A stretch of DNA of 4,395 bases. Origin: a virus. Taxonomy: Duplodnaviria > Heunggongvirae > Uroviricota > Caudoviricetes. Both the position numbers and the translations under genes were made by a program. A model generated the notes under the pieces. It was given only the letters and a program-made list of their open reading frames with translations, did no database searches and was not told where the DNA came from. The stretch lies in the IMG/VR virus record IMGVR_UViG_2671180631_000010; one strand, given 5' to 3'. Below are positions 1 through 4,395 of the stretch, one piece after another. Every line of letters starts with the position of its first letter. Position 1 is the first letter of the stretch.

Positions 1-79
1 GCTTTGAACTCTTTAGAGTAACGTTGGGTTTTTCTGCTCATTATTAGCTCCTTCTGATGCCATTCTATTTCAGGAAGGA

Positions 80-343
80 GTGTCCGTTAAACTCAGGCTA
101 CCTCAGGTTATTCGCTTCTGGGCATGGGCGGATCAACAAATGATAGACGGTAATGCAGATTGTAACGCTCGCGGCGTTACAAAAAGTGCAATAGATCGCA
201 TCACTTTTATGTCTGGTTTTGCTGATGCGTTAATTCAGGTTGGATGGCTGGTCGAAAATGACGGAGGGCTTTCTCTACCTAACTTTGAACGTCATAACGG
301 AAAAAGCTCTAAAAAAAACGGGCGGTTACAAACGAGCGAGTAA
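80..343 (+). CDS. N-terminal fragment of a prophage replication initiator (putative origin-binding domain); likely one frameshifted gene with 447..782
   Basis: Frame-2 ORF from GTG 80 to TAA 341-343, preceded by purine-rich AGGAAGGAG at 72-80 (overlaps the GTG, so spacing is atypical; in-frame ATG at 140 is an alternative start). Frame has stops at 5-7 and 14-16, so it cannot begin further upstream. Ends inside an A8 run (311-318), after which the coding signal continues in frame 1. Confidence 0.6.
   Translation: MSVKLRLPQVIRFWAWADQQMIDGNADCNARGVTKSAIDRITFMSGFADALIQVGWLVENDGGLSLPNFERHNGKSSKKNGRLQTSE
162..180. repeat. 19-bp iteron-like palindrome GTAACGCTCGCGGCGTTAC (arms GTAACGC/GCGTTAC)
   Basis: Read directly; 16 of 19 positions identical to the second copy at 371-389. 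A GTAACG half-site also occurs at 18-23. Confidence 0.55.
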
Positions 344-370
344 CAAAAATACGCGAACTGAAACGAAAAG

Positions 371-389
371 GTAACGCTGCCAGCGTTAC
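371..389. repeat. 19-bp perfect palindrome GTAACGCTG-C-CAGCGTTAC (iteron-like), with half-sites at 322-330, 340-344 and 405-412
   Basis: Read directly; arms are exact reverse complements. Lies in the acidic-linker coding segment of the initiator next to A-rich tracts. Confidence 0.55.
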
Positions 390-446
390 ACAAACGGATC
401 AAAAAGCGTTACCAGAGGAAGAGGAAGAGGAAGATCTAAATACTGA

Positions 447-782
447 TCTCCCCCTCGCCAAAAACGAGCGTCTAAAAAATTCGAGCCGGAGGCTATTGAG
501 CTGCCCGATTGGTTGCCGGAAACACTCTGGCATGAGTGGGTCCGGTTCAGACAGGCATTGCGAAAACCGATTCGAACGGAGCAGGGCGCTAACGGGGCGA
601 TACGGGAACTGGAAAAATTCCGTCAGCAGGGTTTTACACCTGAGCAGGTGATTCGACACAGCATCGCCAATGAATACCAGGGCCTGTTCGCGCCGAAAGG
701 TGTTCGGCCTGAGACGTTGCTCCGACAGGTTAACACCGTCTCGTTGCCGGACAGTGCGATCCCGCCAGGCTTCAGGGGGTAA
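447..782 (+). CDS. C-terminal fragment of the replication initiator: DnaT-like C-terminal domain
   Basis: Frame 0 is open from 447 (after TGA 444-446) to TAA 780-782; the first canonical start in frame is TTG 513. The product ends ...NTVSLPDSAIPPGFRG, matching the C-terminal motif of E. coli primosomal protein DnaT (...NTVSEPDSQIPPGFRG) as recalled from memory. It sits 6 nt upstream of the DnaC-like gene, mirroring the chromosomal dnaT-dnaC arrangement. Confidence 0.65.
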   Translation, partial: SPPRQKRASKKFEPEAIELPDWLPETLWHEWVRFRQALRKPIRTEQGANGAIRELEKFRQQGFTPEQVIRHSIANEYQGLFAPKGVRPETLLRQVNTVSLPDSAIPPGFRG

Positions 783-788
783 CGGACC

Positions 789-1229
789 ATGAAAAATATT
801 GCGACAGGCGGCGTTCTGGAACGCATCCGCCGACTGACCCCGCCACATGTAACCGCCCCATTCAGAACGGTAGCGGAGTGGCGCGAGTGGCAACTTGCTG
901 AAGGCCAGAAACGTAGCGAGGAGATCAACCGCCTGAATCGCCAGTTGCGGGTGGAAAAAATTCTGAATCGCTCAGGCATCCAGCCGTTGCACCGTAAATG
1001 CTCGTTTGCGAATTACCAGGTGCAGAACGACGGCCAGCGATACGCGTTAAGCCAGGCGAAATCCATCGCCGATGAACTGATGACCGGGTGTACAAATTTT
1101 GCGTTCAGCGGAAAACCTGGTACCGGGAAGAATCACTTAGCGGCAGCTATCGGGAATCGCCTGCTGAAAGACGGTCAGACAGTGATTGTGGTTACCGTGG
1201 CTGATGTTATGAGCGCCCTGCACGCCAGC
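789..1229 (+). CDS. DnaC-like replicative helicase loader (AAA+), 3' end lost in N block
   Basis: ATG 789. The N-terminus and the Walker A region (FSGKPGTGKNHLAAAIG) align with E. coli DnaC as recalled (SGIRPLH..CSF.NY, FSGKPGTGKNHLAAAI, ITVADIMSA). The frame runs into Ns at 1230; the track ORF end at 1343 is a read-through artifact. Walker B and the true stop are not visible. Confidence 0.85.
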
Positions 1230-1287
1230 NNNNNNNNNNNNNNNNNNNNNNNNNNNNNNNNNNNNNNNNNNNNNNNNNNNNNNNNNN
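1230..1287. other. 58-nt block of undetermined bases (N) inside the DnaC-like gene
   Basis: Seen directly. Confidence 1.
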
Positions 1288-1303
1288 AGTTTCAGGAGGA
1301 TTT

Positions 1304-1726
1304 ATGGCGAAACCTTTTACTCCCGAACAGCGGGAAGAACTGAAGACGCGAATTGTGGAACTCGTGCATCAGGACGGTCGGGTCACGATTCGGCAGTTGT
1401 CAGATGAAACAGGTATCAGTCGTGCGTCTGTCGGTCGCTTATGCATAGAACTGGTCGCAAGTGGTGATGTATATAATTCTGGCTACGGCTTATTCCCGTC
1501 TGAACAGGCTCGCAAGGACTGGCAAAGCGCCCGCAAAAAACTCTCGAGAGTAAAGGTGAGGAAACCGGTTGTTGTTGATCCGGACCTTATCTGGTCATTA
1601 CCTGACGGAGAAATACGCCGCTACGACAGGCGCCTGAATATAATCTGTCGCGAGTGCCGGAAGAGCGAAGCTATGCAGCGTGTACTGGCTTTCTATCAGG
1701 GTAATTTTCAGGAGGCGATACTGTGA
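1304..1726 (+). CDS. Winged-helix (HTH) DNA-binding protein, function unknown
   Basis: ATG 1304 preceded by AGGAGG at 1294-1299; 140 codons. The N-terminal ~60 aa (RVTIRQLSDETGISRASVGRLCIELVASGDV) has a winged-HTH pattern. Confidence 0.75.
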   Translation: MAKPFTPEQREELKTRIVELVHQDGRVTIRQLSDETGISRASVGRLCIELVASGDVYNSGYGLFPSEQARKDWQSARKKLSRVKVRKPVVVDPDLIWSLPDGEIRRYDRRLNIICRECRKSEAMQRVLAFYQGNFQEAIL

Positions 1727-2140
1727 ATGAAATTAGCTATCAGGCTTCAATTACCGCTGGCATTCGCATCAAAGGAGAGGAGCATGGAAATAAAACCAGA
1801 AGATGAGTTAAGCAATATCGTTTTATTTCCGGTAAAAGAGGATGACCCTCGTAATCAGGTTAATTTTCTTTATGAGCCATCGGAAAGACCATATTGCCAT
1901 CACGCCTCTGTACGGGTTGACGAAAAAGAGCGTCAGGTCCGCTGTAAAATCTGCGGTGCGGTTGTGGAGCCGTTTGACTGGATGCTCTCTGTGGCAAAAA
2001 GAGAAACCAGACTGGCAGATGATGTAAGGCTATTGCGCCAGGAGGAACAGGAAAGGCGGAGAAATATAGAAAAGCTGATACAGATTGAGCGTAACGCGAA
2101 AGCGCGGATACGCAGGGCGACAAAATCCAGAACTGAATAA
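1727..2140 (+). CDS. Zn-ribbon (C-H-H...C-x2-C) protein with basic coiled-coil C-terminus, function unknown
   Basis: ATG 1727 overlaps the upstream stop (TGAATG), indicating translational coupling, with AGGAGG at 1710-1715. An alternative, possibly better start is ATG 1784 with GGAGAGGAG at 1774-1782. Stop TAA 2138-2140. Motif YCHH...RCKICG. Confidence 0.7.
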   Translation: MKLAIRLQLPLAFASKERSMEIKPEDELSNIVLFPVKEDDPRNQVNFLYEPSERPYCHHASVRVDEKERQVRCKICGAVVEPFDWMLSVAKRETRLADDVRLLRQEEQERRRNIEKLIQIERNAKARIRRATKSRTE

Positions 2141-2167
2141 TTAAATTTAGCACTGTTAAAAATTTAA
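2141..2167. promoter_or_regulatory. AT-rich palindrome TTAAATTT-N11-AAATTTAA just after the stop codon; possible operator or protein-binding site
   Basis: Arms 2141-2148 and 2160-2167 are exact reverse complements. AT-only stem, so unlikely to be a stable terminator. Confidence 0.3.
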
Positions 2168-2287
2168 TCCTTAACCGGAGGGATTTCTGCACCCTCAAAT
2201 CATCAGGAGACCACCCGAAAGGGCGGGGAGCAGTCACACATCTGTTTCCGATAGCCCCGTTCTAATGCTACACTCTTTGATATTTTT

Positions 2288-2974
2288 ATGACCCCAATAA
2301 ACATATTTATGACAGTTGCTGATTTCAAACGGCCCAAATTGGAGCTCCCAAACGGGGCAAACAAACTACTACTGCACTCTTGCTGTGCTCCATGTTCCGG
2401 TGAGGTGATGGAGGCGCTTCAGGCCTCGGGAATCGACTACACCATCTTTTTCTACAACCCGAACATTCATCCTCAGAAAGAGTATTTAATTCGTAAGGAT
2501 GAGAATATTCGCTTTGCTGAACAACACGGCGTGCCGTTTATTGATGCTGATTACGACACAGACAACTGGTTTGAACGAGCCAAAGGAATGGAATGGGAGC
2601 CCGAACGAGGGATCCGTTGCACCATGTGTTTTGACATGCGTTTTGAGCGGACAGCGCTGTACGCCGCTGAAAATGGTTTCAGTGTGATCAGCAGTTCACT
2701 GGGCATTTCACGCTGGAAAAATATGCAGCAGGTTAACGACTGTGGGCGGCGAGCCGTCGCGCATTATCCGGGCATGGTGTACTGGGATTATAACTGGCGC
2801 AAGCAGGGCGGCTCGTCCCGTATGATTGAAATCAGCAAGCGCGAAAAATTCTATCAGCAGGAATATTGTGGCTGTGTGTATTCTCTGCGCGATACCAATC
2901 TACACCGCAAATCTCAGGGACGCCCTCTTATCAAAATTGGTCAACTCCACTACGGTAAAGAAGAGAAGGAGTGA
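2288..2974 (+). CDS. queH: QueH-like protein (DUF208, epoxyqueuosine reductase family)
   Basis: 228-codon ORF, stop TGA 2972-2974. Cys motifs HSCCAPCS near the N-terminus, CTMCF mid-protein and YCGCVYS near the C-terminus match the QueH/DUF208 signature as I recall it. Start uncertain (ATG 2288 or 2309); no Shine-Dalgarno before either. Confidence 0.75.
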
Positions 2975-2995
2975 TTTTATGGGGCACCTTTCTGA

Positions 2996-3025
2996 TTGAT
3001 TTCATATTGGCGAGGTAAGTAGAAT
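2996..3025 (+). promoter_or_regulatory. Candidate sigma70 promoter: -35 TTGATT (2996-3001), 18-nt spacer, -10 TAGAAT (3020-3025)
   Basis: Hexamers read directly. Nearly identical to the motif at 3518-3545, including a GACT just downstream of the -10. Points into the N block. Confidence 0.35.
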
Positions 3026-3043
3026 GACTGCGGGTGCTTGAGG

Positions 3044-3080
3044 CTATCTGCTTCAGGCATGAACACCAAAAGGCAGATAG
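3044..3080. repeat. Inverted repeat CTATCTGC-N21-GCAGATAG
   Basis: 8-bp perfect arms at 3044-3051 and 3073-3080. Would lie in the 5' leader of a transcript from the 2996-3025 promoter; no U-tract follows, so not a terminator. Confidence 0.3.
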
Positions 3081-3133
3081 AGAAAAGCCCCAGTTAACAT
3101 TACGCGTCCGGCAAGACGCTTAACATTAATCTG

Positions 3134-3430
3134 NNNNNNNNNNNNNNNNNNNNNNNNNNNNNNNNNNNNNNNNNNNNNNNNNNNNNNNNNNNNNNNNNNN
3201 NNNNNNNNNNNNNNNNNNNNNNNNNNNNNNNNNNNNNNNNNNNNNNNNNNNNNNNNNNNNNNNNNNNNNNNNNNNNNNNNNNNNNNNNNNNNNNNNNNNN
3301 NNNNNNNNNNNNNNNNNNNNNNNNNNNNNNNNNNNNNNNNNNNNNNNNNNNNNNNNNNNNNNNNNNNNNNNNNNNNNNNNNNNNNNNNNNNNNNNNNNNN
3401 NNNNNNNNNNNNNNNNNNNNNNNNNNNNNN
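3134..3430. other. 297-nt block of undetermined bases (N)
   Basis: Seen directly. Flanked by a promoter-like motif upstream and a stop codon plus terminator downstream. Confidence 1.
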
Positions 3431-3952: not shown

Positions 3953-4306
3953 ATGGCACATATACAACTGGTCAAACAAACCTCTTCCGGATTACTTCTC
4001 CCGGCGACGCCGGAGAGTTGCGATTTTCTGCATCAAATCAAAATAGGTGAGTGGATACACGCAGACTTTAAGCGTGTGTGTAACTACGCATTCCACAAGC
4101 GTTTTTTCAAACTCCTGCAACTGGGTTTCGATTACTGGACTCCGGTCGGTGGGGCGATCACGCCTCGCGAACGAAAACTGGTGTCCGGTTTCGTTGATTA
4201 CCTGTGTGAATCAGTAGGCCGGGAACATACGCCAGCTCTGAGCGAAGCCGCAGAGCAATTGAGGTGTACTGGCAATAGCGGACACTACCATTTGTTCTTT
4301 TTTTAA
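3953..4306 (+). CDS. Hypothetical protein, probably a lambdoid nin-region-type protein of unknown function; possibly truncated at a T7 run
   Basis: ATG 3953 preceded by GGAG at 3942-3945 (the track's TTG 3911 start is less likely). Stop TAA 4304-4306 lies at the end of a T7 run (4298-4304); the adjacent frame stays open to the window end. Confidence 0.6.
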   Translation: MAHIQLVKQTSSGLLLPATPESCDFLHQIKIGEWIHADFKRVCNYAFHKRFFKLLQLGFDYWTPVGGAITPRERKLVSGFVDYLCESVGREHTPALSEAAEQLRCTGNSGHYHLFFF

Positions 4307-4317
4307 GCAGCCATCTG

Positions 4318-4395
4318 ATGATATTTTTCCCTGAAGGCTGCCGGGGAGATATTCCCCAGACGAGAGTGACGACGCTGACGATTGTAGAAAATCTC
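4318..4395 (+). CDS. Partial ORF running off the window end (MIFFPEGCRGDIPQTRVTTL...); either a separate gene or the frameshifted continuation of 3953..4306
   Basis: Frame 1 is open from 4279 to the window end with ATG at 4318; no clear Shine-Dalgarno. Confidence 0.25.
   Translation, partial: MIFFPEGCRGDIPQTRVTTLTIVENL

Follow-up and report, generated by a model that had tools for sequence, protein, structure and literature searches.

Results

Organization of the locus

The window, which denotes the entire stretch of 4,395 nucleotides that was analysed (IMG/VR record IMGVR_UViG_2671180631_000010, assigned to the Caudoviricetes), starts with the left end of an IS600 element, followed by the remainder of a gene related to phage replication initiators and by the start of ydaV, which codes for a DnaC-like helicase loader (Table 1). 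Within the initiator region, the list of open reading frames and a three-frame translation recovered all three segments that had been described in the original prediction, with an open reading frame between 80 and 343 in frame 2, a second one starting at 313 in frame 1 that is open up to 651 and a third in frame 0 that is open between 447 and 782. The A8 and A6 runs at which the two frame switches had been located are both present, and translation of a sequence that was edited by the addition of a single A to each run returns the proposed open reading frame of 705 nucleotides and 234 codons together with the predicted junction peptides. A genuine coding signal is evident from the match of the segments to an intact homologue of 262 residues with 98.9% nucleotide identity, and at the protein level they are 100% identical to residues 36-105, 106-150 and 153-262 of this homologue.

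Table 1. Features of the initiator region, with positions referring to the window.
Feature	Position	Strand	Remarks
IS600 left end	1..105	-	Interrupts initiator gene; terminal inverted repeat TGAGGTAGCC... ends at 105
IS600 orfA start codon	41-39	-	Within IS600 left end
GGT, one copy of 3-bp IS600 target-site duplication	106..108	.	Locus L003 compared with intact gene
Pseudogene segment 1, frame 2	107..316	+	Codons 36-105 of intact 262-residue initiator; N-terminal, presumed origin-binding half
Lesion 1, A8 run, +2 frameshift	311..318	+	A6 in intact genes (alignment); in frame also an A_AAA_AAC heptamer
Pseudogene segment 2, frame 1	319..453	+	Codons 106-150; basic/acidic (Lys/Glu-rich) linker
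(GAGGAA)3 hexamer repeat, Glu6	415..432	+	Copy number differs between strains
Lesion 2, junction of 10-bp deletion, true second frame switch	449..455	+	TCCCCCTAAATCCCCCT in intact genes; single TCCCCCT in window
Pseudogene segment 3, frame 0	450..782	+	Codons 153-262 and TAA stop at 780-782; DnaT-like C-terminal domain from about 501
A6 run, no lesion	474..479	+	Lys-Lys in correct frame, as in intact genes
Start of ydaV, DnaC-like helicase-loader gene	789..1229	+	NCBIfam PRK12377, E 8.9e-87; remainder under N run 1230-1287

Several loci of S. sonnei (L003 and others) agree with the window at 100% identity outside of its N runs. In L003, the ydaV gene, which begins 7 bp past the stop codon of the initiator gene, is intact and encodes 248 residues, and a cro-like gene and ydaT are located upstream of the initiator gene in both L001 and L003. 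The two N runs (1230-1287 and 3134-3430) are masks whose lengths are not true and which represent neither real gaps nor deletions: in the identical loci, 304 bp of ydaV are found in place of the 58 N of the former, and 277 bp with a toxin gene of the hok family (Pfam HOK_GEF) in place of the 297 N of the latter. A real deletion as origin of the short ydaV in the window was ruled out, since the N runs do not preserve length. The window also contains an apparently intact gene for the epoxyqueuosine reductase QueH (2288-2974; Pfam E 1.9e-65), which places a gene for tRNA modification in a phage setting.

Intact homologues and predicted function

In a megablast search with positions 1-1230 of the window, 680 complete E. 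coli genomes cover at least 80% of the query. The best matches are labelled 'hypothetical protein' or 'phage replication initiator YdaU family protein', the latter being the PGAP label on one intact homologue, and are followed by ydaV. The intact gene comprises 789 bp and 262 codons, as exemplified by E. coli FDAARGOS_944 and COL60J, and intact orthologues of 262 residues, which are present in many E. coli genomes, served as reference for defining the lesions of the window as a gain of two bases, a loss of ten bases and the insertion of IS600. The alignment of the window with the 789-bp genes is characterized by A8 in place of A6, the 10-bp deletion and the lack of homology left of position 105.

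The assignment of the gene as replication initiator is well-founded, as the intact protein matches phrog_2509 ('replication initiation protein') over residues 1-262 with an E-value of 1.2e-89. Similarly, the proposed DnaT-like C-terminal domain is reflected in a match of residues 170-262 to the PDB entry 2RU8 (E 9.5e-5) and in a second match of the same region to the DnaT C-terminal domain in 9ZBT (E 3.2e-4). When the intact and the 'repaired' protein were searched against Pfam, no family, DUF1376 (PF07120) included, was identified at E <= 0.01, and the NCBIfam model of DnaT remained sub-threshold, with 16 bits compared to a cut-off of 201. Our literature search on ydaU/ydaV replication found no experimental paper on the function of this initiator family. 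The proteins O and P of phage lambda provide a model for origin binding and the recruitment of the helicase loader, and by analogy the N-terminal half of the initiator would bind the origin and its C-terminal half recruit the loader. A palindrome of 19-20 nucleotides (GTAACGC-N5-GCGTTAC) is found in three copies, at 162-180 and 371-389 of the window and at 3865-3884 of L001, with a spacing of 192 and 207 bp. One of the copies shortly precedes the start codon, another falls into the part that codes for the N-terminus and another into the linker. They are candidate sites for the initiator or a repressor, and they might constitute an origin within the gene as in lambda O.

Disruption of the 5' end by IS600

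The start of the open reading frame at position 80 is not the start of the gene. The region 80-105 is the terminal inverted repeat of IS600, so the GTG at position 80 and the first nine 'codons' are IS sequence, and codons 1-35 are located beyond the element. The removal of the start codon together with 35 codons by this insertion, which is the largest of the lesions, had been overlooked. In about 3,000 E. coli genomes, positions 1-105 match, with 100% identity, features that carry the annotation 'IS3-like element IS600 family transposase'. The boundary at 105 was set by comparing L003, which reads ...GGGAAGGT|IS600|GGTTATTCGC, with the intact gene, which reads GGGAAGGTTATTCGC. In L003, a full IS600 (orfA with 100 residues, orfB with 272 residues and terminal repeats TGAGGT...) resides between GGT repeats inside the gene, and in related loci the first 35 codons (MASNWIK...ALGK) are found beyond IS600, where they are called as an open reading frame of 41 residues. 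The event is a simple insertion of IS600 with a 3-bp target duplication at codon 35/36.

Several further observations concern the element and its surroundings. A match of 110/110 bases that places IS600 beside 'replication protein P' in E. coli O26 was considered as a candidate for the same insertion and rejected, as no E. coli match crosses position 105 into the gene. The match in O26-type genomes (e.g. 97-3250) covers five bases past the end of the IS (GGTTA), which may reflect chance or a target-site preference. A second copy of IS600 in the same orientation is found at 4260-4395, where it truncates a DUF1367 gene (3953-4306), resulting in a fusion product of 117 residues that is found on 531 contigs. 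The two copies flank a prophage fragment of 4.15 kb in an arrangement resembling a composite element. In the drafts of the loci L007, L010, L011 and L012, the region beyond IS600 contains a Rac-type ydaU (285 residues, DUF1376) and a truncated ydaV instead of the gene's own 5' fragment, and in L010 the junction between IS600 and the pseudogene is found twice, at 6010 and 10131, 4.1 kb apart. These layouts could be the result of an IS600-mediated rearrangement, of a duplication or of assembly chimeras formed via the repeat.

The A8 run and the 10-bp deletion

In the original prediction, both frame switches were ascribed to poly-A runs, an assignment that holds for the first site but not for the second. 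At the first site, A9 had been assumed as the intact state, whereas the common intact allele is A6, relative to which the window contains a gain of two bases. All ten fetched S. sonnei loci carry A8. In searches with a short query across the junction, A7, A8 and A9 were found in 0/132 complete E. coli genomes, where the best match (76/78) is an A6 allele. The distribution of A8 and A9 does not sort with a nearby linked SNP, which implies that the run has changed more than once by repeated slippage, or else recombination or some sequencing noise in the respective drafts.

The second switch is located about 20 bp upstream of the A6 run, which itself is wild type, at a repeat of the sequence TCCCCCT. 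In the alignment, intact genes read CTGATC-TCCCCCTAAA-TCCCCCT-CGCC, while the window contains one TCCCCCT, defining a loss between 7-bp direct repeats. The 10-bp deletion is found in 10/10 fetched S. sonnei loci and, with a short query across the junction, in 0/551 complete E. coli genomes, with a best match of 81/91. The A6 run corresponding to 474-479 is found at every fetched locus whose local pattern matched. As a consequence of the misplaced lesion, the LAKNERLKK stretch of the repaired protein is an out-of-frame translation of a region whose true sequence is LNPPRQKRASKK, and the repaired junction 'LPLAKNERLKKFEPE' is partly out of frame, the true protein being 'LPLNPPRQKRASKKFEPE'. The hexamer repeat in the same linker encodes between 4 and 16 Glu codons across the fetched loci. 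The values 6, 12, 14 and 16 are represented in the group formed by the loci with IS600 and by L003-L012, the S. sonnei loci that were fetched. The repeat might be used as a VNTR marker for typing. Many short-read contigs of S. sonnei terminate in or near (GAGGAA)n.

Recurrence of the lesions in S. sonnei assemblies

The exact product of 87 residues that is encoded by the open reading frame 80-343 is found on 492 contigs, the longest extending over 4.86 Mb, with sources named Shigella sonnei (e.g. FORC11_0721), and the index of the assembly collection lists it in 481 blocks. Complete chromosomes are represented among these contigs. On 73 further contigs, the same open reading frame is called from an internal start. 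The product of 87 residues can only arise where the IS600 junction occurs together with the A8 run. Look-ups of the hypothetical products of the IS-linked open reading frame with other run lengths returned three contigs for A7, one for A9 and none for A6. The combination of the IS junction, A8, the 10-bp deletion and A6 is found in 10/10 fetched loci, of which five belong to contigs with the size of a chromosome (about 4.8 Mb) and the rest originate from draft assemblies.

Survey of alleles

GTDB genomes, IMG/VR and metagenomes were scanned for a pattern that allows run lengths between A6 and A9. The scan identified A6 at 67 loci, most of them with open reading frames of 260-264 codons and five with an 11-bp deletion, and A7 without deletion at two (L025 and L073). 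The 10-bp deletion was found with A8 at two IS-free loci (L037 and L080), with A9 at two further IS-free loci (L048 and L076) and with A8 and IS600 at six loci. In the scanned viral contigs, each of the ten IMG/VR genomes with the 10-bp deletion contains one allele type only. A synonymous T-to-A change at position 264 of the window goes along with the insertion of IS600. Exact-sequence look-ups located the product of 113 residues expected of IS-free A8 alleles on 159 contigs, among which S. sonnei 53G is represented (SS53G_2911), and the product of the A7 allele on 84 contigs.

The 11-bp deletion is located within GGGCGCTAACGGGGCG and is found at L013 (S. flexneri SFBU1023), L014, L049, L055 and L057, with products of 210-216 residues, and a product of 212 residues of this allele is present on 423 S. 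flexneri contigs (Q7UD55_SHIFL). The two loci obtained from the GTDB scan, in S. flexneri SFBU1023 and E. coli ECMA0423, both carry A6 and this separate 11-bp deletion and lack the 10-bp deletion. The initiator gene was lost independently in S. sonnei and S. flexneri in a convergent manner.

Discussion

The features described in this study identify the region 106-782 of the window as the 3' remnant of a replication-initiator gene of a lambdoid, Rac-like prophage of S. sonnei and as a true pseudogene with three lesions, an interpretation to which we assign a probability of about 93%. The lesions are real, fixed and characteristic of S. sonnei; they are directly observed, as are their reproducibility in assemblies and the homology to intact genes. 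No functional initiator can be made from this locus, and the prophage remnant is unable to replicate autonomously. Of the two explanations that had been offered initially, the genuine decay of a prophage initiator is supported by the recurrence of the lesions across S. sonnei assemblies, whereas the under-calling of homopolymers is contradicted by the 492+73 contigs with A8 compared to three with A7 and one with A9. The concept of decay by slippage-type indels was in this respect correct, but its detail was wrong at one of the two sites and the IS insertion had been missed.

In a plausible sequence of events, the run in the linker would have expanded from A6 to A8, and the ten bases between the 7-bp direct repeats TCCCCCT would have been lost. 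A later insertion of IS600 at codon 35/36, within part of the species, would have cut off the promoter together with the 5' end of the gene, which comprises the start codon and the first 35 codons. This order is suggested by the presence of both indels on IS-free alleles, from which it follows on the simplest reading that the indels preceded IS600, assuming that the alleles represent one locus and not two prophage copies. We infer that the two indels are typical products of replication slippage in a stretch of low complexity. Since the three segments do not contain any amino-acid change, the decay is recent.

The proposal that the frame breaks are assembly artefacts, with homopolymers miscalled in a draft and the gene in fact intact, draws on the N runs of the window, which suggest a masked or imperfect record, and on the rare S. 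sonnei assemblies with A7 (three contigs) or A9 (one contig) at the IS-linked site. We consider it highly improbable, as A8 is found in many independent assemblies, several of them chromosome-sized, as the second break is a 10-bp deletion present at all ten fetched loci and not a homopolymer error, as the A6 run equals the wild type and as the start would be lost to IS600 regardless. An equally remote prospect is that of a slippage-controlled initiator, where transcriptional slippage or -1 ribosomal frameshifting at A_AAA_AAC (313-319) and A_AAA_AAT (474-480) would generate exactly the repaired protein of the original prediction, with KSSKKKRAVTNER and ERLKKFEPEAIELPDWLPETLWHEWVR as trans-frame peptides. 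Both runs are formal X_XXY_YYZ heptamers in the incoming frames, which is the wrong frame in case of the A6 run, and a -1 shift at A8 would give KSSKKKRAV as in natural A9 alleles. Runs of 8-9 A are known sites of transcriptional slippage, one of which is used by Shigella mxiE (PMC1088944). Slippery heptamers alone are, however, expected in an A-rich linker and the arrangement is not conserved, which justifies the doubt about programmed frameshifting that had been expressed at the outset: homologues are single open reading frames with A6 and without deletion, the frameshift junctions are found in 0/132 and 0/551 complete E. coli genomes, and most of the 77 viral and metagenome loci are single open reading frames of 260-264 codons. 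Moreover, recoding would require two consecutive events of low efficiency to obtain a product with nine wrong residues that lacks two others, and the start codon and 35 codons are severed by IS600.

A more serious alternative concerns the history of the same pseudogene. The ancestor could have been an in-frame A9 allele with one extra Lys, in which the loss of a single A caused the frameshift, as had been assumed initially. Slips of a single base are more common than slips of two bases, A9 alleles exist in related strains, which makes a one-base loss at this site possible, IS-free A9 alleles with the same 10-bp deletion occur (L048 and L076), and a partial protein containing KSSKKKRAV is recorded from S. 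sonnei (P0002). In contrast, A9 was observed only alongside the 10-bp deletion and thus in alleles that are already dead and that may equally derive from A8, the survey found no intact A9 allele, A7, A8 and A9 are absent from the 132 complete E. coli genomes, and the distribution of A8 and A9 is incongruent with the linked SNP. We thus regard descent from an in-frame A9 allele as possible but somewhat doubtful. As judged from the run lengths, a route from A6 via A9 to A8 would be as possible as a direct change from A6 to A8. Irrespective of the route, the reading as a three-lesion pseudogene is the one that we favour. That the linker, with its run of A6/A7/A8/A9, the (GAGGAA)n repeat and the direct repeats, all situated among palindromes, would be a slippage hot spot that acts as contingency locus appears very unlikely to us. 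If true, it would turn prophage replication off, IS-free alleles would perhaps be partly rescued by slippage of RNA polymerase or the ribosome, and the recurrent loss in S. sonnei, A7 strains and S. flexneri would reflect selection for the immobilisation of the prophage and not neutral decay.

For annotation, our results imply that the locus should be described as one YdaU-like pseudogene that is disrupted by IS600 and frameshifted, and not as 'hypothetical bacteriophage proteins' of 41, 87 and 89 residues. They also call for caution in the interpretation of sequence alone, as the addition of bases at nearby homopolymers can restore an open reading frame even if the true lesion is located elsewhere. 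For the study of Shigella genome decay and for strain typing, the independent loss in the two species and the variable copy number of the hexamer are of minor interest.

The relationship to known systems is closest for YdaU of the Rac prophage of E. coli K-12, a lambda O-like protein of the DUF1376 family, whose gene occupies the same site between the cI/cro/ydaT module and the DnaC-like ydaV, by which it is directly followed. Over the C-terminal 124 residues, both proteins are 81% identical, whereas the N-terminal half of the gene product investigated here shows no BLASTP similarity to Rac YdaU. Together with the absent Pfam match to DUF1376, this feature distinguishes the gene as a mosaic relative with another N-terminal module, and its copy in the window differs further from Rac ydaU as a pseudogene with three lesions. 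With DnaT (primosomal protein I; 2RU8 and 9ZBT), the protein has the C-terminal domain in common, including the terminal motif VNTVS-PDS-IPPGFRG, but the relationship is confined to this domain, as DnaT is a host protein for replication restart with a different N-terminus. The A8 run and the A_AAA_AAC heptamer at a frame junction resemble slippage-dependent genes such as Shigella mxiE, T. thermophilus dnaX and orfAB of the IS3 family, from which the locus differs by the lack of conservation of this junction among homologues, by a second junction that results from a deletion and by the missing start. All Shigella species show an expansion of five IS families that include IS600 (Hawkey et al. 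2020, PMC7373316), and in S. sonnei 50% of the pseudogenes were attributed directly to IS insertion, with a further 12% of the interrupted genes containing an IS and another inactivating mutation (PMC7373316). The locus belongs to the same class of pseudogenes carrying IS insertions and indels, although it concerns a prophage gene and not a metabolic one, and it is thus not novel but of an already known kind, an IS-disrupted and frameshifted Shigella pseudogene.
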